A stretch of 64,000 nucleotides of DNA from assembly GCA_039944855.1 (NCBI GenBank), contig JBDUXZ010000005.1, forward strand, positions 372,676 to 436,675, given 5' to 3'. Source of the DNA: Rhodothermales bacterium (GTDB lineage Bacteria; Bacteroidota; Rhodothermia; Rhodothermales; JANQRZ01). Within the stretch, counting starts at the first letter, position 1; each line of letters opens with the position of its first letter. A model generated the notes under the pieces. It ran no database searches. It was given only the letters and a program-made list of their open reading frames with translations, and was not told the origin of the DNA. Below are positions 5,462-40,718 of this stretch, in pieces. The translations under genes were made by a program, and so were the position numbers.

Positions 5462-7381
5462 ATGAACGACGCGCTCGCCGACAAGCTCGCCCACCTCCCC
5501 ACCTCGCCCGGCGTCTACCAGCACAAAGACGCCGAGGGCACCGTGCTCTACGTCGGCAAGGCGAAGAACCTCCGCAACCGCGTGCGGTCGTACTTCCAGG
5601 AGTCGCGGCCGAAGGACCGGCGGCTGCGCATCCTCGTCTCCAAAGTCGAGGACGTCGAGATCATCGTCACCGACACCGAGGCCGAGGCGCTGATCCTCGA
5701 GAACAACCTCATCAAGCGCCTCAAGCCGCGCTACAACATCCTCCTCAAGGACGACAAGACCTACCCCTACATCTGCATCAAGAACGAGCGCTTCCCGCGC
5801 GTCTTCCCCACGCGCCGCGTCAAGAAAGACGGCTCCAAGTACTTCGGGCCGTACACCGACGTGAAGAACATGAAGCTCGCGCTGAAGACGATCAAGGACC
5901 TCTTCAAGCTTCGAAGCTGCTCGCTCTACCTCTCCGAAGGGAATATCCAGGCCGGCAAGTTCGAACCGTGCCTCGACTACCACATCCAGCGCTGCGCCGC
6001 GCCGTGCGTCGGCTACGAGTCCGAGGCGCACTACAACAGCAAGATCCAGCAGATCGAGAAGCTGCTCAACGGGAAGACGAAGGAGCTCATCGCCCTGCTG
6101 AAAGACGAGATGCAGCGGCTCGCCGCCGAGAAGGAGTACGAGCAGGCCGCCGAGTACCGCGACCGCGCGAGGGCGCTCGAAGTCTACGCGCAGAAGCAGA
6201 AGGTCGTCGCCGAGGACGGGGCCGACCGCGACCTCTTCGCCCTCCACGTGGACCGCGAGGCGGACGTGGCGATCGGCGTGCTCTTCGTGATGCGTGAGGG
6301 GAAGATTCTCGGCCGCCGCCACAAGGTCATCCGGCCCGTCGAAGGCGTCGAGGAAAGCGAGCTGATGCAGCGGCTGCTCGAAGACCACTACACCGAGGCG
6401 ACATTCTTCCCCGACGAAGTGCTGCTGAGCCACGCGCCCGAGACGCCCGCCCCGCTCGAAGCCGTTCTCCGCGAGGGCCGCGGGCGGATCGTCGACCTCC
6501 GCGTGCCCGAGCGCGGTGACAAGGCGAGTCTGCTGCGGATGGTCGAGGCGAACGCGAAGCTGCTCGTCGGCGAGTGGAAGCTGCAGAAGGCGAAGGCCGA
6601 CGAGGACTACATCCCGAAGTCCGTGAAGTCACTCCAGCGCGACCTGAGGCTGAAGCACCCGCCGCGCCGGATCGAGTGCTTCGACATCTCGCACCTCGGC
6701 GGGACCGGCACCGTCGCGTCGTGCGTCGTGTTCGAGGACGGCAAGCCGAAAAAGTCGGAGTACCGGACGTTCAAGATCCGCACCGTCGAGAGCGGCAAGC
6801 CGGACGACTTCCAGTCGATGCGCGAAGTCCTCCATCGGCGCTACCGGCGGACGCTCGAAGAGAACGGCCCGTGGCCCGACCTCGTCGTGATCGACGGCGG
6901 GAAGGGGCAGCTCTCGTCGGCCGTCGAGTCGCTGCGGGGCGTGGACGTGTACGGCAAGTTTCCCGTCGTCGGCCTCGCGAAGCGGCTCGAAGAGGTGTTC
7001 TTCCCCGGCGACAGCCAGAGCGTGATGATCCCCCGCACGTCGTCGGCGCTGCGGCTGTTGCAGCGCGTCCGCGACGAGGCGCACCGCTTTGCCATCACGG
7101 CGCAGCGCAAGCAACGCACGAAGACGACCCTCCATTCCGAGCTGATGGACATCCCCGGCGTCGGCGCGAAGACCGTCAAGAAGCTGCTGACGACGCTCGG
7201 CTCCGTCAAGCGCATCGAAGCCGCGACCGAAGAGACCCTCGCCGAGGTCGTCGGTCCGAGCCTCGCGAGCAAGGTCCACGGCTACTTCCGCACGCAGGAG
7301 GGCAAGGCCACGCCCGACGCGCCCGCCGTCGAGTCCGAGGAGGTCCCGGCCGGCCCGCCGCCCTCGGGCGACGTGCCGTAA
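5462..7381 (+). CDS. uvrC: Excinuclease ABC subunit C
   Basis: GIY-YIG N-terminus (GVYQHKD..LYVGKAKNLRNRV), UVR domain, RNase-H-like and C-terminal HhH regions. 639 aa. Confidence 0.95.
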   Translation: MNDALADKLAHLPTSPGVYQHKDAEGTVLYVGKAKNLRNRVRSYFQESRPKDRRLRILVSKVEDVEIIVTDTEAEALILENNLIKRLKPRYNILLKDDKTYPYICIKNERFPRVFPTRRVKKDGSKYFGPYTDVKNMKLALKTIKDLFKLRSCSLYLSEGNIQAGKFEPCLDYHIQRCAAPCVGYESEAHYNSKIQQIEKLLNGKTKELIALLKDEMQRLAAEKEYEQAAEYRDRARALEVYAQKQKVVAEDGADRDLFALHVDREADVAIGVLFVMREGKILGRRHKVIRPVEGVEESELMQRLLEDHYTEATFFPDEVLLSHAPETPAPLEAVLREGRGRIVDLRVPERGDKASLLRMVEANAKLLVGEWKLQKAKADEDYIPKSVKSLQRDLRLKHPPRRIECFDISHLGGTGTVASCVVFEDGKPKKSEYRTFKIRTVESGKPDDFQSMREVLHRRYRRTLEENGPWPDLVVIDGGKGQLSSAVESLRGVDVYGKFPVVGLAKRLEEVFFPGDSQSVMIPRTSSALRLLQRVRDEAHRFAITAQRKQRTKTTLHSELMDIPGVGAKTVKKLLTTLGSVKRIEAATEETLAEVVGPSLASKVHGYFRTQEGKATPDAPAVESEEVPAGPPPSGDVP

Positions 7382-7394
7382 CCAACCCCCTGCC

Positions 7395-8087
7395 TTATTT
7401 CTCGGGGAAGACGATCACGCGGAGGTCGTAGGCGCCCACTTGTCCGGGGCCGACCGTCGTCACATCCACGGTCCAGTTTCCAGAGGCGCCGACGAGGTTC
7501 TCGACGCGCGAGAGCGTCGTGGAACCGGCGTCGTCGTTGCGCCACTGCTGGCCGCTCGGCGCGCTCACCCGGAGGAACCCGTCGAAGCCGTAGCTGACGA
7601 GCTCAACGGCGAAGGTGCCGCGCGCGGGCGCATCGATGGGGAGGGTATCGTAGTACTCGCCCTTGATCGTCTGCCGATCACTCGGGTCGAGGCGGCCGGA
7701 GACGGTCGTCACCTCGGCGATGCCGCCGGGCGTGATGACGAGGGTGTACGGCCCGCGCTGCTCGCTGTTGTACGCCGAGGCCCACACGTTCCACGTCCCC
7801 GGCTCGCTCGCGATGATCGAGACCTGCGAGATGTTCGAGCCCTCGAAGTCGTCGTTATTCCACTCCGTGCCCGAGGGCGAGCGGACGATGAGGTAGCTGT
7901 CGAGGTTCGGGTCGCCTTCCATGCGGACGGTCACCTGCTGCCCGTTCTTCGCCTCGAAGCTGTAGGCGTCGTAGAGCTCGCCGAAGTCGCGCGTGGCGTC
8001 ACCGGGTTCGAGGGTGCCGGAATAGGTCTGTGCGGCGAGGGGGGCGGCGAAACCGGTGAGCAAGCCGAGGAGAATGAGCGCTTTCAT
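7395..8087 (-). CDS. Secreted protein with two pre-peptidase C-terminal (PPC)-like domains
   Basis: Signal peptide MKALILLGLLTGFAAPLAAQ. Two similar ~100-aa modules (GTLEPGD...YSFEA..DSYLIV; GRLDPSD...). Confidence 0.65.
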   Translation of the reverse strand: MKALILLGLLTGFAAPLAAQTYSGTLEPGDATRDFGELYDAYSFEAKNGQQVTVRMEGDPNLDSYLIVRSPSGTEWNNDDFEGSNISQVSIIASEPGTWNVWASAYNSEQRGPYTLVITPGGIAEVTTVSGRLDPSDRQTIKGEYYDTLPIDAPARGTFAVELVSYGFDGFLRVSAPSGQQWRNDDAGSTTLSRVENLVGASGNWTVDVTTVGPGQVGAYDLRVIVFPEK

Positions 8088-8208: not shown

Positions 8209-9243
8209 ATGCTCAATTACATCTGGGCCGGGCTGATCGTCTTCAGCCTCGTCTTCGCCCTCTTCTACGACGTCCGCGACCTCACCCGCGACACCTTCCG
8301 CAACGACGCCGACCTCCCCGTCGCGCTCGTTTTCCCCGAGGGCTACGACCCCGGCGCCCGCCGCACCCCCATCGCCGTCCGCGTCGATCCGACGGCGTAC
8401 GGCGCGTTTTATGACACCGACGCCCGGCCGGACTCCGCCTACGACGCCATGCTGATCCGCACGCGTGAAGGCCTGCAAGTCCGCTTCGCCGAGGGGTCGA
8501 ACCTGCCCGAGCCGCTCGCTACGATCCGCGACTTCACGAACTCGCGCGACGAGCAGCTGCAGGGCACGCTCGTCGGCGCGCTCCCAGCCGCGCCGGGCGT
8601 CGCGGCCGTCCCCGTCGCGCTCGACTTCCCCCGCGTCCGCTTCGTGAAGATGAACGCGATCGCCGGGGCCGCGCTCGACTTCGCCGAGACGGCGGCGAGC
8701 ATCGCGCTGAGCCTCATCGGCGTGCTCGCGCTCTTCCTCGGCCTGCTGCAGATTGCCGAGGACTCGGGCATCATCTATTCGCTCGTCAAGCTCGTCCGGC
8801 CCGTCCTCCGCCCGCTCTTCCCCGACATCCCCGCCGACCACCCCGCCTTCGGGATGATCGCGCTCAACATGGCGGCGAACGTGTTCGGGCTCGGGAATGC
8901 CGCCACGCCGTTCGGGATCAAAGCGATGGAGGAATTGCAGGAGCTCAACCCCACCGAGGACACGGCGACGGACTCGATGGTGATGCTCCTCGCCATCAAC
9001 ACGGCGAGCGTGCAGCTCGTCCCGCCCGTCCTCCTCCTCGCCCTCATGGGGCTCCAGATCAACCAGCTCATCTTCGCGATCTGGATCACGACGGGCGTCT
9101 CGCTCGCCGTCGCCATCATCGCCGCCAAGCTGTTCGCCCGCCTGCCGAAGTCGCGGGCCTCGAACCCACACCGGCTCGCCGCAGCCGGGGACCCGATGCA
9201 CCGAGAAGACGATGCGCCGCCGGAGCCACCCCCCACTTCCTGA
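8209..9243 (+). CDS. Nucleoside-recognition-domain membrane protein, SpmA-like, with a ~125-aa insertion after TM1
   Basis: MLNYIWAGLIVFSL... and LRPLFPDIPADHPAFGMIALNMAANVFGLGNAATPFGIKAM match the SpmA pattern. Confidence 0.75.
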   Translation: MLNYIWAGLIVFSLVFALFYDVRDLTRDTFRNDADLPVALVFPEGYDPGARRTPIAVRVDPTAYGAFYDTDARPDSAYDAMLIRTREGLQVRFAEGSNLPEPLATIRDFTNSRDEQLQGTLVGALPAAPGVAAVPVALDFPRVRFVKMNAIAGAALDFAETAASIALSLIGVLALFLGLLQIAEDSGIIYSLVKLVRPVLRPLFPDIPADHPAFGMIALNMAANVFGLGNAATPFGIKAMEELQELNPTEDTATDSMVMLLAINTASVQLVPPVLLLALMGLQINQLIFAIWITTGVSLAVAIIAAKLFARLPKSRASNPHRLAAAGDPMHREDDAPPEPPPTS

Positions 9244-9841: not shown

Positions 9842-10924
9842 CTACGCCTCGGCCACTTGTTCGAGCCCGAGTTCGATGCAGCGGAGCTGGAGACGGACGG
9901 CAGTGCCGAGGTCGAGCGGGCGGAGCTGGTACGGGGCGAGGTGCTCCCGGATGGACTCCCCGCGCTGGATGCGGAGTTGGAGATCCGCCATCTCGTCGCG
10001 GAGGGCGAGGTACGCCGTCGGGAGCCCCGGCTCGCGGCGGTACGCCCGTTCGATGACGAAGAGCGGCAACTCGGTGACGAGGCAGAGCGGGTAGCGCTGG
10101 CGCGCGGCGTCGTACCCGGCGAGCCGCGCGAGCTCCATCGAGGACGAGAAGAACTTCGCCGCCATCCCGGCGTCGCCGCGCTCGTGGAAGTGGAAGCGCA
10201 TAGCCTTCCCCTCCGGCGTCGTGCAGAAGCCGGGGTCGATGTAGTCGAACCCCTTCTCGCCGCCGCGGTCGTGGTCGTGGAGGCGGAGTCCGGCGTCGCG
10301 GACCGCCTCGACGAACGCCGTGCGGAGGGCCTCCGTGCCTTCAACCCACTGCCGCTCGATGAGGAGGAGGCCGCCCTCGGAGAAGCCCATCCCGTGCAGG
10401 CTCATGTGGAGCGCGAGCGGGGTGTAGTCGAAGAGGTAGCGCGCGGCGAGACGGTTCTCCACGCGCATCACCGGGTAGCCGAACTCGATGTCGCGGCCGG
10501 GCTGCTCGCGGACGCGGTGCCGGAGGTACGCCTCGACATCGGGCCACGCGCCGATCCACGGCTGATTCCGGGCCTCGCCGTCGGGGTTGACGTGGGGCAT
10601 GATGCGGAACGTGAAGCGGTCGAAGAGGTCGGCGAAGCCGTCGCCCTCGGCGAGCCAGTCGCGGTTCGCGAGGCTCTCGAGGATGAACACCCGCAGCGTC
10701 TCCGGGCCGACGGGCTCGTCGGCGTGGGCGCCGGCCATGAGCGTGACCGTCTGCGGCCCGTGGCCGAGCGTGACGCCGTAGATCGGCCGCCCCTCCTCGC
10801 TGGTCCCGAGGTCGTGGAACTGCGCGAGGTCGGCGTTCGAGGCGCAGGCGTGGCGGATCTCGGAGCGGACTTCGTCATCGGTCCGAAAGCGGAGGTCGGT
10901 CACGTCGATCTCGGTGAGTCGCAT
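9842..10924 (-). CDS. M14-family zinc carboxypeptidase-like protein (no signal peptide)
   Basis: The HxxE zinc motif context MAGAHADEPVG and the later HMSLHGMG are M14-like. 360 aa. Confidence 0.65.
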   Translation of the reverse strand: MRLTEIDVTDLRFRTDDEVRSEIRHACASNADLAQFHDLGTSEEGRPIYGVTLGHGPQTVTLMAGAHADEPVGPETLRVFILESLANRDWLAEGDGFADLFDRFTFRIMPHVNPDGEARNQPWIGAWPDVEAYLRHRVREQPGRDIEFGYPVMRVENRLAARYLFDYTPLALHMSLHGMGFSEGGLLLIERQWVEGTEALRTAFVEAVRDAGLRLHDHDRGGEKGFDYIDPGFCTTPEGKAMRFHFHERGDAGMAAKFFSSSMELARLAGYDAARQRYPLCLVTELPLFVIERAYRREPGLPTAYLALRDEMADLQLRIQRGESIREHLAPYQLRPLDLGTAVRLQLRCIELGLEQVAEA

Positions 10925-11007
10925 AAGGAGGAACCTACAGGACGTGCTCGTCGCTGTCGACCAACCGAGCCCGCATCGGGTCGGACGCGCTTGGGGGCCG
11001 GGGATCG

Positions 11008-11733
11008 CTACTCGTTGTTGACGACGAACGGGATGGAGATCTCGCCGAATACGTCGCCGTCATTCGCGCTGACGAGGTCGGCGCGGAAGCGGACGCGGGG
11101 GAGGTCCGCGTCGACGCGCTGGAAGTAGAGGAACCCCTCGACGCGGCCACCGGGGTCGAGCACACCTTCGGGCAGCACCTCCGCGACCATCTCCTCGGTC
11201 GGCAATTCGATGGACTGCCACGCGGTGGCGTAGCGTTCGTAGTAGTACGGGTCGTAGTAGAACGGGTCGGCGTAGGGGCTGATCGTCGGGTAGGCGGAGG
11301 CGTAGTACGGCGCGACGCGGAAGTTGCGGTACTCGAACGCCGGCGCAGTGACGGGGGCGTAGCCGTCGACGAGCGCAGGCTCTTCGACGCTGCCCTCAAC
11401 GCCGTACGGCGGGAGCGCGGCGTAGCGCTGCCCCTGCGGGCCGACGAGCGTGAACTCGTCGTAGCGGAGGCGGACCGGGATCTGACTGTTGTTCTCGATC
11501 ACGACGCGAAGCGGGGTTATTTCGCGCTTGACCTCGGCCATGCCGGGCCACGCCTGCGACTGCACCACCATGCGGACGCCCTCCACCCGGTCGACGGCCG
11601 CGTCCATCATGCTGGCGGCCTCGTCGGCGGCGGGCGCGGGGGCGAGTTCCGTGCCGGGCGCGGAGCAGCCTGCAAAGACCACGGCAGCGAAAAGAATGAG
11701 GGGGAAGAAGAAGGAGCGGAGTGGAGTGCGCAT
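11008..11733 (-). CDS. Hypothetical lipoprotein
   Basis: Lipobox FAAVVFAGCSAP. No family recognised. Confidence 0.6.
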   Translation of the reverse strand: MRTPLRSFFFPLILFAAVVFAGCSAPGTELAPAPAADEAASMMDAAVDRVEGVRMVVQSQAWPGMAEVKREITPLRVVIENNSQIPVRLRYDEFTLVGPQGQRYAALPPYGVEGSVEEPALVDGYAPVTAPAFEYRNFRVAPYYASAYPTISPYADPFYYDPYYYERYATAWQSIELPTEEMVAEVLPEGVLDPGGRVEGFLYFQRVDADLPRVRFRADLVSANDGDVFGEISIPFVVNNE

Positions 11734-11912
11734 GACGAGCAGAAGGGAGAAGAGCGAGCAGAAGAACAGAAATGAGCGAGGCCGAGCACAGCGCGGCGCA
11801 CACGAGGACGACGATAGGGATGGGCCGCCATCACCCTATCGAACACCAAACCCGGTCCTCAGTGTTCCATAATCGCCGGATTTGGGGACTTCCCCTACCC
11901 CCGGCCGTCGCC

Positions 11913-12398
11913 TCACGCCGCGCCCGCCCGGTCCGCTTCGAAGGCCTCGACGCACCGGAGCGCCCACGCCTGCGCCCCCTCGAAGTCGGCGGGAGACGGC
12001 CCTTTGTCGATCTCGAAATGGTCGAGCGCGCGGCGAGCCCCGAACGCGTCGAGCTGATCGGCGAGGCGGTACGCCGCCGTCTGGAAGTACGGGTCGTAGA
12101 GATGGTCGCCGAGGCCGATGATGCCGTACGACACCCCGGAGAGGTCGGGGGCCACGGCGACGAGCGACTCGAAGAACTCGACGGCGTTGTCGGGGAACGT
12201 CCCCTCACTCCACGTGCAGAGCACGGCGATGAGGCGGTCGGCCTCCGCCAGCATCTCCGGCACGGCGTCGGCCATGTCGACGATAAGCGACGTATGCCCC
12301 GCGTCGGCGAGCGCGTCGGCCACCTCGTCGGCGACCCGCTCGGAGTTGCCCGTCTGGGTCCCGACGAGGAGGAGGATGGGAGGCGTGCGGCGTGTCAT
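11913..12398 (-). CDS. Flavodoxin (short-chain)
   Basis: MTRRTPPILLLVGTQTGNSERVA contains the FMN phosphate loop TQTGNS. 161 aa. The longer upstream ORF part is R/P/A-rich junk, so the start is set at ATG 12398. Confidence 0.85.
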   Translation of the reverse strand: MTRRTPPILLLVGTQTGNSERVADEVADALADAGHTSLIVDMADAVPEMLAEADRLIAVLCTWSEGTFPDNAVEFFESLVAVAPDLSGVSYGIIGLGDHLYDPYFQTAAYRLADQLDAFGARRALDHFEIDKGPSPADFEGAQAWALRCVEAFEADRAGAA

Positions 12399-26200: not shown

Positions 26201-26722
26201 GACATCGACCTCGAGCGCGACCACAAGGTGTGCGGCATCATCACCGAAGTCAAGCAGATCACGACGAAGGCCGGCAAGCCGATGGCGTTCCTCACGCTCG
26301 AGGACCAGACCGGGCAGGGCGAGGTCGTCCTATTCACGAGCGTGTTCGAGCGGCACAGCCACATGCTCCGCACGGACGAGGTGGTGATGGTGCGCGGGCA
26401 GGCCGAGGTGCGCGGCGGCAGCGTGAAGATCAAAGCGCAGTCCGTGGACGCGATGTGGAAGGTGCGCGAGGAGTACGTCAAGCGCATCATCCTCCGCCTC
26501 AACGCTGACGACACCCTCCCCGAGGCGATGGACGAGTTCTACGCGCTCTGCCAGCGCAACAAAGGCCCCGTGCAACTGCTGTTCGACGTGGAGACGCGGG
26601 AGATCCCGCAGCCCGTCCGCCTCCGCGCGCAGAAAGGCATGGTCGAGCCGACGCCCGAGCTGATGCAGGGGATGTACCGGCTGTTCGGTCGGAAGATGGT
26701 GGCGCTGGAGGGGGATGCGTGA
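23249..26722 (+). CDS. dnaE: DNA polymerase III alpha subunit
   Basis: PHP N-terminus MPEFCHLHCHTQYSLLDGA, polymerase core, HhH and OB regions. ~1157 aa. Confidence 0.95.
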   Translation: MPEFCHLHCHTQYSLLDGAARIKKLVGRAAELEIPALAITDHGNLFGVPEFYTYAKQANVQPIIGCEFYVTPSGMGDTNDRTRYHQVLLAKDEVGYRNLIKLSSMSYTDGFYYKPRIDRDTLRAHSEGLVATTCCLQGEVLQTILNKGEVAGLKVFKEYLDIFGEDYYIEIQDHGIPEQRKCNAVLLRWAEQFGVKVVATNDVHYVEQDDAAAQDVLLCLQTGRALNDPTRMRFENDQFFLKSAPQMQAAFADSVGDALVVDRALDTTREIADKCRLDLQMGTLLMPHFPLPEAFELPGAYLRHLVYEGAKVRYGREGISELIRERLDYELKVISEMGFDGYFLIVQDFTTAARDLGVSVGPGRGSAAGSCVAYCLGITNIDPLQYDLLFERFLNPERISMPDIDIDFDDRGRAKVIDYVVQKYGRESVCQIVTFGTMGSKSVIRDVARVLDIPLPEADRISKLVPDGVKVSLEDAKSSVKEFAELYKSPDPQIRKLMHYATVLEGSARHTGVHAAGVIIAPGDVSQYVPVSIQKGKGGAGDAVVTQYDGKWIEEFGLLKMDFLGLKTLTVLDDALALIKTGHGVEIDLDSLPLDDEKTYKLFQKGDTVGIFQFESEGMREWMRKLKPTGIDDLIAMNALYRPGPMDLIPSYIDRKHGREEVEHPHPMLAEILEPTYGIPVYQEQVMQMAQVMGGYTLGGADLLRRAMGKKKQEEMDTQRVIFVEGATKKDVDEKTANEVFDMMAKFAGYGFNKSHSAAYSLVAYHTAYLKAHYPAEFMAAVLTNEAGDSKKLAVALDEARRMGLDLLPPCVNRSEHHFNVEVEDGQRFVRYGLYAVKTVGAGAIEAIVNERAERGPYESLFDFCKRVDLHSVNKTALEALTRAGAFDFCEAHRAQLSGASDDAYRFGQQHQVNKALGQNSLFGGSDPGVDNFEPSLPHVEPWTRGEQLRHEKELMGFYVSGHPLDAYEAEVNAFVSAYLGRPDDIDLERDHKVCGIITEVKQITTKAGKPMAFLTLEDQTGQGEVVLFTSVFERHSHMLRTDEVVMVRGQAEVRGGSVKIKAQSVDAMWKVREEYVKRIILRLNADDTLPEAMDEFYALCQRNKGPVQLLFDVETREIPQPVRLRAQKGMVEPTPELMQGMYRLFGRKMVALEGDA

Positions 26723-27186
26723 AGCCGACCGTCTATCTCGAAACCTCGTTCGTGGGCTACCTCACTGCTCGCCCGGCGCGGGACGTGATCGTGCTGGCGA
26801 ACCAGCAGCTCACGCGGGAATGGTGGGAGCGGCGGCGCGAGGACTTTGAGATGTTCGCCTCCGCCGCTGTCCGCCGAGAGGCCGGGGCCGGGAATGCCGA
26901 GGCCGCCCGCGAGCGGCTGGCCGTGCTGGAGGGCATCGCTTCGCTGTCCGTGACTGACGAGGCGGGGCGACTCGCTGGAGCTTTCCTTGCCGAGGGAGCG
27001 CTGCCCGAAAAGGCGGCCGAAGATGCGCTCCACGTCGCGATCGCCGCGACGAACGGGATGGACTATTTGCTCACCTGGAACTGCAAGCACATCGCCAACG
27101 CCACGCTCCGAAACCTGATCGAGCAGGTCTGCCGTTCAAACGGCTACGTAACCCCCACGATCTGCACCCCCGCTGAGCTTTTCTAA
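26719..27186 (+). CDS. PIN-like (VapC-type) protein; GTG start overlaps the dnaE stop (GTGA)
   Basis: The first-strand VYLETSF lies 5 residues from the start. EDALHVAIAA and LLTWNCKHIAN are motifs I associate with a PIN-like toxin family. Confidence 0.65.
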   Translation: MKPTVYLETSFVGYLTARPARDVIVLANQQLTREWWERRREDFEMFASAAVRREAGAGNAEAARERLAVLEGIASLSVTDEAGRLAGAFLAEGALPEKAAEDALHVAIAATNGMDYLLTWNCKHIANATLRNLIEQVCRSNGYVTPTICTPAELF

Positions 27187-27193
27187 CGAGACC

Positions 27194-27403
27194 ATGCTTC
27201 CTGACCTCCCCGACTCCGAGCAGTGGGACGACCCCATCGTCGCCGAGATTCGCGCCGTCCGTGACGCCCACGCCCGCACGTTCAATTACGACCTCGACGC
27301 CATCTTTGCCGACATCAAGCGCCACGAAGACGAACTCCGCCGACAGGGCTACACGTTTGTGGACCGCTCAAAGGAAGCGAAGCAGGCTGGCGCTGCGGAG
27401 TAG
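27194..27403 (+). CDS. Small partner protein of the PIN-like gene (putative antitoxin, 69 aa)
   Basis: Starts 8 nt after the PIN-like stop on the same strand. DDPIVAEIRAVRDAHARTFNYDLDAIFADIK resembles small proteins seen next to such PIN genes. Confidence 0.5.
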   Translation: MLPDLPDSEQWDDPIVAEIRAVRDAHARTFNYDLDAIFADIKRHEDELRRQGYTFVDRSKEAKQAGAAE

Positions 27404-27408
27404 CGAAT

Positions 27409-27535
27409 GCGGGAGATCCCGCAGCCCGTCCGCCTGCGCGCCCAGAAAGGCATGGTCGAGCCGACGCCGGAGCTGATGCAGGGGATGTACCGCCGCTTCG
27501 GCCGAAAGATGGTGGCGCTAGAAGGAGATGCTTAG
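27409..27535 (+). pseudogene. Displaced duplicate of the dnaE 3' end (last 42 codons plus a TAG stop)
   Basis: 127 nt align without gaps to 26596-26722, with 14 mismatches by my count. Translation is identical except one L-to-R change. Confidence 0.9.
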
Positions 27536-27571
27536 GTTAGTGATATCTCTATCCAAACACCATGAACGCTT

Positions 27572-28948
27572 ATGCTATTCTCTCGAAGGGCATCCGGCAA
27601 CAGCGCTGTCCCAATACGTCATACAGAAATTATAATTGAAAATGTCCGCGTTTTTTCAGGCAGACATAGAATTCCAATCAAGCCGTTAACATTTGTTACG
27701 GGGGAGAATAGCTCAGGAAAGTCAACGCTGATAGCAATGATATCGGCGATGTACGATTATGAGAGTTATCCACTTCAGCCACGATTCAATGCTCCGCCTT
27801 TTAACCTAGGCGGCTACGACACCATAGCTACTGTGTTGGAGGACACGCAGGAGCCAGCTAAGTCTTTCAGTATTGGATTTTACAAAGAGGGAGGAGAGAG
27901 AGGGACCACGATATCTGTAGTAGCTACGTACAATGAAAAACTAGGAAATCCTGACTTCCGCAAGCTCACCATTGATTATGATGACGTCCAGTATCAGATT
28001 GAGGCCTTTGATTCAGAGGATAATGTGTTCGAGGGCCACATAACGGTACGAAAGGGGAAAGTTGAAATAGGTTCCGATTTCAATTTCCCTCGTATTTTTG
28101 GTGATGCAAGAAGGATTAGACTTGACGAAATAGCTTATCACATATTTAGGGACAACGAGGACATTATTAGAGCTAAGCGTGACGACTCGGACTATCGTTG
28201 GATTTTCGAAAGAATATATGATCTAGGATATTTTTCCGTGCCAGGGCGCGCCCTATCCATTGCGCCTATCCGAACAAAACCTGAGCGGATCTATGGACAC
28301 GCAGAGGCAGAATATCGCCCCGCTGGTGATCATATTCCCTTCACACTCTCTCGCTTGTTTTCGCAAGGTAGTGCTTGGGAAGAAAAACGTGCGGTAATAT
28401 CAGCCCTCAATACTTTCGGCGAGGAATCTGGAATGTTTGAAGGCTTTAAGGTTCACAAACTCGGAAAACATGCTAGCGACCCTTTTCAGTTGACAGTGAC
28501 TATTGATGGAAATGATCGCAATCTAGTTGACGTGGGATACGGTGTAAGCCAAGCTCTGCCTATTGTAGTACAAAGCGTGCTCACGGCAGATAGCCGTCTA
28601 CTTCTCCTCCAACAGCCTGAAGTACATCTTCATCCAAAGGCACAAGCTGCTCTAGGTTCTTTCTTTTCGAGATTGGTTTCAGACGGCACCCGAGAGATAA
28701 TTGTAGAAACTCATAGTGATTACATTATAGACCGAGTCCGCCAAGAAGTAGCACGAGGCAATATTGATCCTGACCTTATACAAATAATTTTCATGCACAA
28801 AGACTCATCTGGAGCAAGAGCCCACAATATAGATTTAGATAGGAACGGCAATATCGTGAACGCCCCTCCGTATTACCGCGAGTTCTTCCTCAGGGAGGAA
28901 ATGAACCTCTTAACCCGTTCATCTGAAGAACTCGGCCCAACTGAATAA
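27572..28948 (+). CDS. ABC-type AAA ATPase (AAA_21/AAA_15/DUF3696-like)
   Basis: Walker A GENSSGKST, GYGVSQALPIV, LLLLQQPEVHLHP, ETHSDY. Lies in an AT-rich region. 458 aa. Confidence 0.8.
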   Translation: MLFSRRASGNSAVPIRHTEIIIENVRVFSGRHRIPIKPLTFVTGENSSGKSTLIAMISAMYDYESYPLQPRFNAPPFNLGGYDTIATVLEDTQEPAKSFSIGFYKEGGERGTTISVVATYNEKLGNPDFRKLTIDYDDVQYQIEAFDSEDNVFEGHITVRKGKVEIGSDFNFPRIFGDARRIRLDEIAYHIFRDNEDIIRAKRDDSDYRWIFERIYDLGYFSVPGRALSIAPIRTKPERIYGHAEAEYRPAGDHIPFTLSRLFSQGSAWEEKRAVISALNTFGEESGMFEGFKVHKLGKHASDPFQLTVTIDGNDRNLVDVGYGVSQALPIVVQSVLTADSRLLLLQQPEVHLHPKAQAALGSFFSRLVSDGTREIIVETHSDYIIDRVRQEVARGNIDPDLIQIIFMHKDSSGARAHNIDLDRNGNIVNAPPYYREFFLREEMNLLTRSSEELGPTE

Positions 28949-29391
28949 TGTGCATTATCATTGATAACAATGTCGTCCATCGTGTTTTCTTCACTGATAA
29001 TGATCCCGATTTCTCACATCTAAGAGAGTGCCTGTTCGGCAATGGCCCTTGTGACGTAAAGTTGGTGTACGGTGGGGGTCTTAAGAGAGAATATGTCGTT
29101 AGCGCTAGGGTCGCTTCTACCCTGCGTGTTCTCGACCAAGCAGGAAGAGCAATACAAGTCACAGATGCCAGCGTAGACAGTGAAACCCAAGTGGTCGAGG
29201 AAATGAATCAATGTGTATCAGATGACCCGCACGTGATTGCCTTAGCCCGTGTTAGCAATGTTAGGCTACTGTGCTCTCACGACATGAACTTACATACTGA
29301 CTTCAGAAACCATCACCTTGTCAACGGTCCTCGGGGCAACATTTATCAAAATCCAGGGCACAATCATCTGTTGCAAAGACACTGTAGCTAA
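28948..29391 (+). CDS. Small PIN-like protein (147 aa), translationally coupled to the ATPase gene
   Basis: TAATG overlap with the upstream stop. MCIIIDNNV, SDDPHVIALA and CSHDMNL give PIN-like spacing of acidic residues. The fold assignment is inferred. Confidence 0.6.
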   Translation: MCIIIDNNVVHRVFFTDNDPDFSHLRECLFGNGPCDVKLVYGGGLKREYVVSARVASTLRVLDQAGRAIQVTDASVDSETQVVEEMNQCVSDDPHVIALARVSNVRLLCSHDMNLHTDFRNHHLVNGPRGNIYQNPGHNHLLQRHCS

Positions 29392-29665
29392 GACCGTCGG
29401 TGTATCCTTGGCCCTGAACTGCATGTAGGATGCAGAACCCGGACTGGCACGACTTCGGTGATGACCTGGCGCCGGGCTGACGCAGCACGTTCGTAGAACC
29501 GGAGGCGAGGTCGGAGCAACGATCCCGGCGTTGACAACTCCTGAAGGGGGGTCCGCAACACGCGCCACGATCCCCGCAACCCTCCCCTCGGGCTGCCGTA
29601 CGTCGGACCGTATGCTAACGGGAGTCCCGACCCGCTCCTGCTCTCCCCTGCTCGCCTCCTACCCG

Positions 29666-38995: not shown

Positions 38996-39870
38996 GAGAC
39001 TGTTTGGGGAACGGCTCAGTGGAAGCCTATGGGCGCCCGTCGGCGTCTGGAAGAGCCCTGATTCGCTCACCAGACGCCCGGACCCATGCGCTCGCAACGC
39101 TACGGCTCCGACCTGACGGACGCCCAGTGGGAAGTTATCGCTCCGCTGCTCGCAGGTCATCGCTCCATCAAGCACCCCCCTCGCCGCATCCTCGACGCCC
39201 TGCTCTACCTCGCCAAGACCGGCTGCCAGTGGCGCTACCTCCCCGGCGCCTACCCGCCTTGGCAGAGCGTCTACTACGTCTTCCGACGGTGGATGGCACG
39301 GGGGCTCCTGAGGGCGCTCGTCCACCGGCTCCGCCGCCTCGTGCGCATCCGCCTCGGTCGCGCACCAAGCCCGTCGGCGGCCATCATCGACTCGCAGTCG
39401 GTCAAGACGAGCCACGTCGGCGGCGAGCGTGGCTTCGACGGGGGCAAGCTCGTCACCGGCCGGAAGCGCCATATTCTGGTCGATACGCTCGGGCTGCTGC
39501 TGGCCGTGCTGGTTCACCGGGCCGACCTCAACGACAGCCAGCGCGCGCCGCAGTTGCTCGACCGAGTGCAGGGGGAGGTCCCTCGGCTGGAAGTCGTCTT
39601 CGCCGACGCGGGCTACCGCTACACGCCTGCGGGCTTGATCTGGCGCGTGTTCGGGTGGCTGTGGCAGGTGGTCGAGCGGGAGCCGGGGCAGCGGGGGTTC
39701 GTCGTGCTGAAGAAGCGGTGGGTCGTCGAGCGAACGTTCGCGTGGTTCGGCGGGTACCGCCGGCTCTCGAAGGACTACGAGCGGCTACCCGCCGTCAGCG
39801 AAGCGTTGGTCCAACTCAGTGCGATTCGGTTGATGGTTCGACGCATCGCCTAGCTTCCCCAAACAGTCTC
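38996..39870 (+). mobile_element. IS5-family insertion sequence (IS427/IS1031-like), apparently intact
   Basis: Perfect 16-bp terminal inverted repeats: GAGACTGTTTGGGGAA (38996-39011) and its complement at 39855-39870. Flanked by a direct TCA (38993-38995 and 39871-39873). A single transposase ORF lies inside. Confidence 0.9.
39086..39853 (+). CDS. IS5-family DDE transposase
   Basis: LTDAQWEVIAPLL...GCQWRYLP...IIDSQSVKT...GKLVTGRKRHILVDT...ADAGY...VERTFAWF..YRRLSKDYE are classical IS5/IS4-type motifs. Confidence 0.92.
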   Translation: MRSQRYGSDLTDAQWEVIAPLLAGHRSIKHPPRRILDALLYLAKTGCQWRYLPGAYPPWQSVYYVFRRWMARGLLRALVHRLRRLVRIRLGRAPSPSAAIIDSQSVKTSHVGGERGFDGGKLVTGRKRHILVDTLGLLLAVLVHRADLNDSQRAPQLLDRVQGEVPRLEVVFADAGYRYTPAGLIWRVFGWLWQVVEREPGQRGFVVLKKRWVVERTFAWFGGYRRLSKDYERLPAVSEALVQLSAIRLMVRRIA

Positions 39871-39920
39871 TCAGAACTCGTAGGGCATGGGTAGCCTCAG
39901 CCCCCACAGTTCCCTCCTTC

Positions 39921-40718
39921 CTATCCTATCGGCTTTCCAAAAATATGAATCGTACGATCGACCGGCTCCCTGTCCCAGGGTAGCACTTCATCTTCCCCAG
40001 GGAATTGCCTCCACCATTCGTACGACTCCCACCCTACCAACTCGAGGATCTCCTCTGCGCTAGTCCCATACCTACTCAGAGAAGAGGTGTGTATTTCTAG
40101 AGAGATCTTCGGCTTTGTCGCTAATACCTGCTGCGCTCCTTTGAGTAGGGTTGCTTCGAACCCCTCCACGTCGATCTTCAGTAGCGTAGGCTTAAGATGG
40201 AGGTAATCGTCCAGACGCACCACCGGTACGTCAATCCCTGGCCCTTTCGGGCTGACCTGCGCATTCGACTCGTCCGTAATACGTACCTGTCCCGGCTCCT
40301 GGCCTACAGCCGCTGGCACTATCTGCACGTTTTCGAAACCGTTCAGTTCTACTTGACGCTCCAAGATCTCCACGTTGCGCGGGACGGGCTCGAACGCGAC
40401 CACCTTCCCCTCTTGCCCTACGCGATGGGCGAATAAGACAGTGAGTTCACCATGGTGTGCGCCACATTCGAAGATGACATCTCCAGGCTCGACCATATGC
40501 TCCCACAGGAAAGCGATCTCCCCCGTGTCCCCCCCCCATTCAAACCACATCTCTCCAACACGATCACCCAAAAAGAACTTAAAGCGATGACCGAATCGCT
40601 CGAACTCAGTCACATAGGGGCTAAAATTTCGATTCCGAATTCGGAACAGGCTACGTTTCATGAACGCCCGAACGCTCTGGGGGGCTAATGCAGCAATATT
40701 CTTTACCAACGAAGCCAT
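39921..40718 (-). CDS. FkbM-family SAM-dependent methyltransferase
   Basis: VIFECGAHHGELTVLFA...VVAFEPVPRN...ELNGFENV. Lower-GC patch (spot counts 48-60%). Confidence 0.75.
   Translation of the reverse strand: MASLVKNIAALAPQSVRAFMKRSLFRIRNRNFSPYVTEFERFGHRFKFFLGDRVGEMWFEWGGDTGEIAFLWEHMVEPGDVIFECGAHHGELTVLFAHRVGQEGKVVAFEPVPRNVEILERQVELNGFENVQIVPAAVGQEPGQVRITDESNAQVSPKGPGIDVPVVRLDDYLHLKPTLLKIDVEGFEATLLKGAQQVLATKPKISLEIHTSSLSRYGTSAEEILELVGWESYEWWRQFPGEDEVLPWDREPVDRTIHIFGKPIG

Follow-up and report, generated by a model that had tools for sequence, protein, structure and literature searches.

Within a 64,000-nucleotide (nt) stretch of a Rhodothermales bacterium genome (assembly GCA_039944855.1, contig JBDUXZ010000005.1, positions 372,676 to 436,675; hereafter the window), two overlapping genes, ORF1 and ORF2, probably form a self-contained conflict module that entered the genome by horizontal transfer; its most likely role is antiphage defence or abortive infection, exerted through an ATP-gated PIN RNase. 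We established the folds and motifs of the two proteins, the conservation of their operon, its horizontal acquisition, and the homology of ORF1 to the ATPase of HEC-03, a validated two-gene antiphage system composed of a DUF3696 ABC ATPase and a VapC-like PIN protein (Payne et al. 2024, bioRxiv 10.1101/2024.01.29.577857). The locus is laid out as follows (aa, amino acids).

27572-28948, + strand: ORF1, 458 aa, ATG start; ABC ATPase with an AAA_15/AAA_21 head and a DUF3696-like C-terminal tail
28948-29391, + strand: ORF2, 147 aa, ATG start; stand-alone PIN-fold protein, predicted Mg2+-dependent RNase effector
28946-28950, + strand: TAATG stop/start overlap (translational coupling), with the TAA stop at 28946-28948, the ATG at 28948-28950 and base 28948 common to both
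27536-29400, no strand: low-GC islet holding both genes, beginning directly after the stop codon (27533-27535) of a duplicated dnaE 3' end

This one-base overlap between two same-strand reading frames had been reported by an earlier reading made from the letters alone (the sequence-only reading), and it is seen in the sequence, as are all the motifs which that reading quoted: GENSSGKST, GYGVSQALP, LLLLQQPEVHLHP and ETHSDY in the translation of ORF1, and MCIIIDNNV, SDDPHVIALA and CSHDMNL in that of ORF2. Its assignment of ORF1 to the ABC-type AAA_21/AAA_15/DUF3696 ATPases was likewise upheld. ORF1 matched Pfam AAA_15 (E = 4.9e-19; 69.6 bits, cut-off 32.1) and AAA_21 (E = 1.5e-16; 61.8 bits, cut-off 27) above the gathering scores, and its nearest relatives carry a DUF3696 annotation; the Pfam DUF3696 model itself gave no match to ORF1. 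The AlphaFold 2 (AF2) model of the protein (predicted local distance difference test, pLDDT, 90.4) led in Foldseek to SMC/Rad50 heads and to PtuA of Septu and retron complexes, and contained no coiled-coil insert. Among PDB sequences only the Thermus OLD protein 6p74 was matched (E = 2.9e-4), with no close solved structure. Three PADLOC models recognised ORF1, namely NsnB, the ATPase of the Menshen system (E = 7.2e-43, residues 18-433), PDC-M55A (9.5e-33) and the HEC-03 ATPase model (4.2e-27), and all three were matched by 86/86 members of the ORF1 family. Residue conservation was assessed over 73 paired ATPases, with Walker A and the H-loop also examined in a separate alignment (A3), and marks out the following elements.

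27701-27727, + strand: Walker A/P-loop G44-E-N-S-S-G-K50-S-T, residues 44-52; G44, N46, G49 and K50 invariant in the 73 paired ATPases
28529-28561, + strand: ABC signature-like D320-V-G-Y-G-V-S-Q-A-L-P, in which GxG replaces SGG; GYGVSQALP is residues 322-330
28598-28636, + strand: non-canonical Walker B LLLL-Q347-Q348-P-E350-VHLHP (residues 343-355), with Gln at both positions of the D-E dyad
28706-28720, + strand: H-loop/switch E379-T-H381-S-D383; E379, H381 and S382 invariant; ETHSDY is residues 379-384
28733-28915, + strand: C-terminal tail, residues about 388-448; a helix, a beta-hairpin and a long helix, with GN-I-x-N/A-P-x-x-Y-R-x-FF-x-x-E

Further invariant positions were R234, P237, R239 and Y241, the segments D320-V-G-Y-G-x-S-Q and E379-x-H381-S-D, and, in the tail, G426-N...P432..Y..FF..E442. 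The canonical Walker B, hhhhD-E, is absent from ORF1, which reads hhhhQ347-Q348 instead; the two glutamines occur as Q-Q in 72/73 of the paired ATPases and align with the 'EE' of Thermus OLD 6p74 (HMMER). In a multiple alignment, the HEC-03 and PDC-M55 ATPases read 'EQPE' at this position, and the Walker B of NsnB has been reported as 'EN' (Li et al. 2025, PMC12065111), so that the missing catalytic Glu is a trait of the DUF3696-tailed clade, and the loss of both acidic residues is confined to the ORF1 family. With Gln in place of both Walker B acidic residues, ORF1 probably acts as a switch that binds ATP, or hydrolyses it slowly, rather than as a motor. To judge by its sequence, the C-terminal tail appears homologous to the DUF3696 tails of the HEC-03, PDC-M55 and NsnB ATPases, and it is here, by the AlphaFold 3 (AF3) models of the NsnB-NsnC complex (PMC12065111), that the PIN protein is predicted to dock.

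A subset of ORF1-family ATPases is longer (603-652 aa) and carries a conserved N-terminal extension of ~200 aa with the motif ...SSGLQSVNTRTF... and no Pfam match (P0155, encoded at 6001-7881 of locus L088, and P0128, P0165, P0208, P0225, P0226 and P0230). This extension may be an extra sensor domain. We had considered these homologues of ~600-650 aa as ATPase-PIN fusions and rejected that idea, for the additional part is N-terminal and without Pfam match, and a separate ORF2 homologue still lies downstream.

Searches of Pfam, NCBIfam, PADLOC and PHROGs returned no model matching ORF2. Its AF2 model (pLDDT 93.8; predicted template modelling score, pTM, 0.88) has a PIN fold, as judged by Foldseek comparison with the PDB, where the best match was VapC26 (5x3t_B; probability 0.99, template modelling (TM) score 0.59/0.62), followed by FitB, VapC2, PAE0151 and HARP RNase P, all at TM 0.5-0.62. 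A profile of the family found nothing significant among PDB sequences, the sole faint match being a DUF4411 PIN-like chain. The family had 131 matches in a word-indexed search and, in an exhaustive profile search, 2069 representatives of 50%-identity clusters (E <= 1e-3), the best 150 of which are all 111-193 aa long and stand alone. Among 87 relatives, PIN (PF01850) was recognised in 22 (best E = 1e-6) and PIN_3 (PF13470) in 19; ORF2 itself matched neither. D6, E48, D93, H95, A100, D112, L115 and D118 are invariant in these 87 sequences, in agreement with the PIN-like character and catalytic-type acidic residues that the sequence-only reading had proposed. The predicted catalytic positions are these.

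28963-28965, + strand: D6, predicted first catalytic acidic residue, at the end of beta-1; invariant; aligns with the D of 'VVDTNVA' in the HEC-03 PIN
29089-29091, + strand: E48, predicted second catalytic acidic residue; invariant; aligns with invariant E52 of the HEC-03 PIN family
29224-29226, + strand: D93 (SDDPH), predicted third catalytic acidic residue; invariant; aligns with invariant D110 of the HEC-03 PIN family
29281-29301, + strand: D112...D118 (CSHDMNLHTDF), fourth acidic position(s); both invariant; D112 aligns with invariant D129 of the HEC-03 PIN family

We take the spacing of D6, E48, D93 and D112 to be like that of the catalytic tetrads of VapC and FitB. The modelled fold and the invariant tetrad favour reading ORF2 as an active PIN nuclease, apparently competent for catalysis.

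Beyond the acidic tetrad, several Cys and His residues are near-invariant in the ORF2 family (alignment A4): C2 (in most sequences), H95, C109, H138 and C146. The HEC-03 PIN family has invariant C23, C27 and C150 and a near-invariant H153. These residues may form a structural metal site in the two families.

The co-occurrence of the two genes across genomes, which the sequence-only reading had put forward as a check, proved nearly complete. Relatives of ORF2 were found at 405 or more loci (a lower bound) of the genome collection, and 80 of these were fetched for analysis of the pairing. An ORF1-like ATPase (E 1e-54 to 1e-117) was present in 74; four lacked upstream sequence, one carried a broken ORF2, and one had a truncated ORF2 without an ATPase. 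Thus, in 74/75 informative loci the ATPase gene lies directly upstream on the same strand, its end falling only a few bases from the start of ORF2; the gap is -4 to +27 nt in most of the 74, and values down to -86 nt are an artefact of taking the first start codon mechanically. In the reverse direction, loci anchored on the ATPase had the PIN gene downstream in 2/2 cases; at one of these loci the source annotation had left the gene uncalled. When the flanking ORFs of the 74 loci were clustered, no third conserved gene emerged; the largest neighbour cluster covered 6/74, and clusters recurring in up to six loci reflect the synteny of related Dehalococcoidia. The hosts belong to more than ten phyla, among them Acidobacteriota, Chloroflexota (many Dehalococcoidia), Planctomycetota, Verrucomicrobiota, Gemmatimonadota, Latescibacterota, Proteobacteria and Armatimonadota, and further include Rhodothermales, Nitrospira and one sponge cyanobacterium. 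With 2069 cluster representatives of the ORF2 family and an operon kept across phyla, the features of the pair are far beyond chance.

The pair was acquired horizontally as a two-gene operon, since its G+C content is consistently below that of its flanks, an integrase adjoins one relative and a gene fragment another. The difference from the flanks averaged -0.085 and was below -0.05 in 50/69 loci and above +0.02 in 0/69; in the window, G+C is 0.43-0.48 across 27536-29400 (about 44% overall) as compared with 0.62-0.72 on either side, in a genome of 65-72% G+C. Genomic contexts vary. One homologous pair adjoins the integrase, another lies beside a ubiquitin-like/ThiF and helix-turn-helix/M78 cluster, and in L088 a DNA N6/N4 methyltransferase gene is located directly upstream of the extended ATPase gene, with the PIN gene downstream. 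In a Pyrinomonadaceae metagenome-assembled genome (L003), the pair is flanked by a 64-aa Aminotran_3 fragment (8395-8589) and a complete Aminotran_3 gene (10615-11967) on the opposite strand. Like the duplicated dnaE end in the window, this arrangement suggests that the pair inserted at or within the end of a gene.

A small DUF433-like protein of antitoxin type adjoins the pair in 6/74 loci, on either side (e.g., L020, 2418-2717). These neighbours echo the toxin-antitoxin-like module beside the pair in the window.

The sequence-only reading had also called the pairing undescribed, which did not hold: besides HEC-03, Menshen offers an NsnB ATPase that docks a PIN-like domain of NsnC (PMC12065111). 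Phage defence by HEC-03 requires both genes and induction of the system is toxic, and its genes (Table S2, bioRxiv 10.1101/2024.01.29.577857) encode, in Pseudomonas cichorii, a 461-aa 'DUF3696 domain-containing protein' (WP_025259138) and an overlapping 157-aa PIN protein (WP_025259137). The two systems therefore have the same order, ATPase then PIN, a stop/start overlap, and similar sizes (461 + 157 as compared with 458 + 147 aa). The ATPases are homologous (BLASTP, 26% identity over 237 aa, E = 6e-19) and have GxGxSQ, xQPExHLHP, ExHS and the GNI-N-P-FF tail in common, and the HEC-03 partner is, like ORF2, a stand-alone VapC-like PIN with a D-E-D-D tetrad. The PIN proteins are more distant: BLASTP found nothing between ORF2 and the HEC-03 PIN, and hhalign against that single sequence gave 29%, whereas a profile-profile comparison of the ORF2 family with 56 HEC-03 PIN relatives reached 79% probability (E = 1.6e-5, 128 columns) and superposed the catalytic columns (D6/D5, E48/E52, D93/D110, D112/D129).

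Other features set the two families apart. Their Walker B sequences differ (QQPE in ORF1, EQPE in HEC-03), as do their Insert-1 regions, and ORF1/ORF2 is found mainly in environmental phyla, unlike HEC-03. ORF1 scored 93 bits on the HEC-03 ATPase profile PDLC04148 (family best E = 1.7e-33), as compared with 367-445 bits for genuine members, and genuine HEC-03 PIN partners scored 84-284 bits on PDLC04147. The labels of these models in PADLOC-DB v2.0.0 are swapped relative to the paper: 'HEC-03B' (PDLC04148, 458 positions) is the ATPase and 'HEC-03A' (PDLC04147, 159 positions) the PIN protein, the published HEC-03 PIN sequence (P0382) matching 'HEC-03A' at 284 bits.

On two unrelated plasmids, genuine HEC-03 pairs are directly followed by a gene for an 'RNA ligase family protein' (L092, 5446-6147, Aeromonas; L094, 5410-6009, Rhodococcus), a gene absent beside ORF1/ORF2 and of which no mention was found in the available part of the HEC-03 preprint. 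Such a neighbour would fit an RNA-cleaving PIN effector accompanied by a repair or immunity function.

PADLOC scores were calibrated on plasmid loci carrying genuine family members, with the following result.

Genuine HEC-03 ATPases (Aeromonas, Rhodococcus): HEC-03 ATPase model 367-445 bits; NsnB about 199; PDC-M55A 184-193
Genuine PDC-M55A (Bacillus): HEC-03 ATPase model 176 bits; NsnB 193; PDC-M55A 267
ORF1: HEC-03 ATPase model 93 bits; NsnB 146; PDC-M55A 112

ATPase identity was 21-26% between ORF1 and HEC-03/PDC-M55, 40-44% within HEC-03 and 32-48% within the ORF1 family; set against HEC-03 in the multiple alignment, ORF1 was 21-25% identical. Since ORF1 scores below even the cross-family scores of the other families and is only 21-26% identical to them, these comparisons appear to place ORF1/ORF2 in the DUF3696-tailed ATPase clade as a fourth branch of family rank, next to HEC-03, PDC-M55A and NsnB. 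In all the examples of this clade that we examined, and in the description of Menshen, the downstream partner is PIN-like or of unknown fold. Because PADLOC, Pfam and NCBIfam all miss ORF2, the system would go unnamed by standard tools; the best PADLOC match of ORF1, NsnB, scored below the values that genuine HEC-03 and PDC-M55 ATPases reach on that model. Although the family is distinct, widely distributed and without annotation, it is not categorically new, as an ABC-ATPase + PIN defence pair exists in HEC-03.

PDC-M55, a PADLOC candidate system (with an example on Bacillus pacificus plasmid CP093425), likewise consists of a DUF3696 ATPase gene followed by an overlapping partner gene, but the partner is the 352-aa PDC-M55B, to which ORF2 gives no match. 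Menshen, NsnABC, was reportedly described by Millman and colleagues in 2022. Its NsnB, the best PADLOC match of ORF1, shares with it an ABC head carrying GxG for SGG, a Walker B of non-canonical type and a tail at the C terminus; the protein encoded downstream of NsnB begins with a PIN-like domain for which docking on this tail is predicted. In AF3 models, the NsnB protein, an AAA_15 head with a DUF3696 tail, docks the inactive PIN-like N-domain of NsnC, which continues into a separate C-terminal toxin domain, and all Menshen inPIN families lack the D-E-D-D tetrad (Li et al. 2025, PMC12065111). ORF2, in contrast, is a single-domain protein that has kept the tetrad, and the NsnC model matched none of the 87 members of its family. 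Menshen has NsnA (ParB-DUF262 + ParBDB) directly upstream of the ATPase, where ORF1 is instead preceded by a dnaE 3' copy and a PIN-like/69-aa module. As the Menshen survey was anchored on NsnA (PMC12065111), ATPase-PIN pairs without NsnA lay outside its scope. More remotely, Septu (PtuAB), PARIS (AriAB), Gabija (GajAB) and OLD/AbiL follow the general logic proposed for ORF1/ORF2, with a nuclease effector held or regulated by an ABC ATPase oligomer; matches of ORF1 to their AriA, GajA and Old models were weak and confined to the Walker B and H-loop region. The effectors of these systems are HNH or Toprim/DUF4435 proteins, not PIN, and their ATPases lack a DUF3696-type tail.

If HEC-03, Menshen, Septu and PARIS are a guide, ORF1 and ORF2 would form a complex with its own trigger, RNA substrate and defence phenotype, and we infer the roles of sensor for ORF1 and effector for ORF2. 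ORF1 would oligomerise through ATP-dependent engagement of its heads, while its C-terminal tails would clamp ORF2 and keep the nuclease silent. An infection cue could reach ORF1 through the variable, beta-rich Insert-1 region (residues about 98-175), through nucleotide status or through both, and in the variants of 600-650 aa possibly through the added N-terminal domain. The cue would alter the ATP-bound state of ORF1, so that ORF2 is released or activated, and the freed ORF2 would cut RNA in the manner of VapC (tRNA, rRNA or mRNA), arresting the cell or the invader. A further proposal, which we regard as rather doubtful, is that ORF1/ORF2 represents a minimal, ancestral-like form of the DUF3696-ATPase/PIN partnership, in which a hydrolysis-impaired ATPase would sense nucleotide state and cage an active PIN on its tails, Menshen being derived from it by inactivation of the PIN to an adaptor, addition of a toxin domain and recruitment of a ParB-DUF262 sensor.

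Several observations weigh against a conflict module of this kind. On the side of ORF2, 0/87 family members matched the HEC-03 PIN model (PDLC04147, E <= 1) or any other PADLOC model, the homology with the HEC-03 PIN rests on the 79% hhalign probability, and the Foldseek E-values are weak (best 0.019, TM about 0.6). The QQ Walker B could mean that ORF1 hydrolyses no ATP at all. No ORF1/ORF2-type pair was found in the plasmid and phage collections searched. Finally, clustering with known defence genes, the other check put forward by the sequence-only reading, found no support: the 126 nearest flanking genes sampled, with no background control run, were mostly metabolic or housekeeping (ArgJ, aminotransferases), with a handful of matches to defence models. 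The pair is therefore typically a solitary islet rather than a member of a defence island, and guilt-by-association support is lacking.

Because the copies are solitary, the most serious rival is a selfish toxin-antitoxin or addiction cassette, in which a toxin of VapC type, ORF2, would be countered by ORF1 as a large protein antitoxin or chaperone, the pair stabilising itself or the surrounding DNA rather than defending against phages. PIN toxins are the classic toxins of such cassettes, and ORF2 has the fold of the VapBC/FitAB type II toxins VapC and FitB, its PDB matches (ORF2-VapC identity 11-19%); Pfam annotates AAA_21 as 'putative AbiEii toxin, Type IV TA system'; the copies are low-GC islets among housekeeping genes; in the window, another toxin-antitoxin-like module lies beside the pair at the dnaE-flank insertion site; and the toxicity of HEC-03 on induction points the same way. 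Yet HEC-03, the closest tested relative, protects against phages and needs both genes to do so. The small DNA-binding antitoxin is absent, the place of the upstream VapB of VapBC being taken by the 458-aa ATPase, which, with its conserved nucleotide-binding motifs, would be a costly antitoxin. Toxin-antitoxin and abortive-infection roles can, moreover, coexist, and we consider the pure addiction cassette unlikely.

The two other explanations seem to us far less probable. That the pair is a degenerate or minimal Menshen, with ORF1 as NsnB and ORF2 as a truncated NsnC reduced to its PIN-like adaptor, NsnA and the toxin domain having been lost and the remainder being non-functional or served by unlinked partners, would account for NsnB being the top PADLOC match of ORF1 (146 bits, 86/86 members) and for the docking of the NsnC PIN-like domain on the NsnB tail in AF3 models (PMC12065111). 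But true HEC-03 and PDC-M55 ATPases, which are not NsnB, reach 193-199 bits on the same model; a ParB-DUF262 gene was found neither in the window flank nor in the 74 loci; the tetrad lost in all Menshen inPIN families is invariant in the ORF2 family; and the stand-alone state of the best 150 of 2069 ORF2 representatives (111-193 aa) indicates a stable architecture, not a truncation. We regard this explanation as very unlikely. More improbable still is a housekeeping or repair function, with an SMC/Rad50-like ATPase and an accessory nuclease acting on host nucleic acids and no role in conflict. The fold of ORF1 does resemble SMC/Rad50 heads and the neighbours are housekeeping genes, but the coiled-coil insert is absent, the spread over phyla is patchy, insertion sites vary, G+C is consistently under that of the flanks, and the closest characterised relatives are all defence ATPases.

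The pair is common: it occurs in many phyla, at 405 genome loci or more, and clustering at 50% identity gives 2069 representatives. Since Pfam, NCBIfam and PADLOC do not see it as a system, it is overlooked when the defence systems of environmental and sponge-associated bacteria are counted. ORF1/ORF2 bridges HEC-03, with its active stand-alone PIN, and Menshen, with its inactive PIN adaptor and toxin domain, which suggests that what the clade has conserved as its core is the docking of a PIN on the DUF3696 tail. The essentially invariant QQPE Walker B provides a handle on whether, in ABC-ATPase defence, ATP binding is enough or hydrolysis is required. Should the ancestral-form proposal be true, the pair would offer a two-protein model of how nucleotide binding leads to effector release in the HEC-03/PDC-M55/Menshen clade.

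The surroundings of the pair differ in part from what the sequence-only reading had described. It had the two genes directly following a PIN/partner module, but a duplicate of the dnaE 3' end lies in between, and the upstream PIN-like ORF has only a sub-threshold Pfam PIN match (E = 0.046).

27409-27531, + strand: second copy of the dnaE 3' end, 123 nt, 91% identical to 26596-26718

The dnaE gene itself ends at 26722, and this 123-nt direct repeat was the only significant repeat found around the islet; the second copy contains the in-frame coding remnant '...REIPQPVRLRAQKGMVEPTPELMQGMYR.FGRKMVALEGDA*'. The two copies flank the PIN-like ORF (155 aa, 26719-27186), whose start overlaps the dnaE stop as GTGA, and a 69-aa ORF (27194-27403). 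The closest relative of the locus, a 3.3-kb metagenome contig (L090; protein identity 91% for the ATPase and 82% for the PIN), has the same layout, including the dnaE-end duplication. The whole has the appearance of an element inserted into the 3' end of dnaE, bringing a replacement gene end along. As duplicated dnaE ends bracket the upstream module and the L090 layout is the same, the dnaE 3' flank is an insertion site where small cassettes piled up. A scan of the islet surroundings found no sigma-70-like promoter, intrinsic terminator, tRNA or islet-bounding repeats.

The islet had further been called the only strongly AT-rich stretch of the window. It is indeed the deepest G+C dip of the whole window (0.446 at 28-29 kb), but not the sole one, a second, shallower dip (0.50-0.58) occurring at 39.9-40.9 kb. 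That weaker low-GC stretch (39086-40718), which is unrelated to the ORF1/ORF2 pair, holds an ORF for a DDE transposase of insertion-sequence type (39086-39853, + strand) and one for an FkbM-like methyltransferase (39921-40718, - strand).

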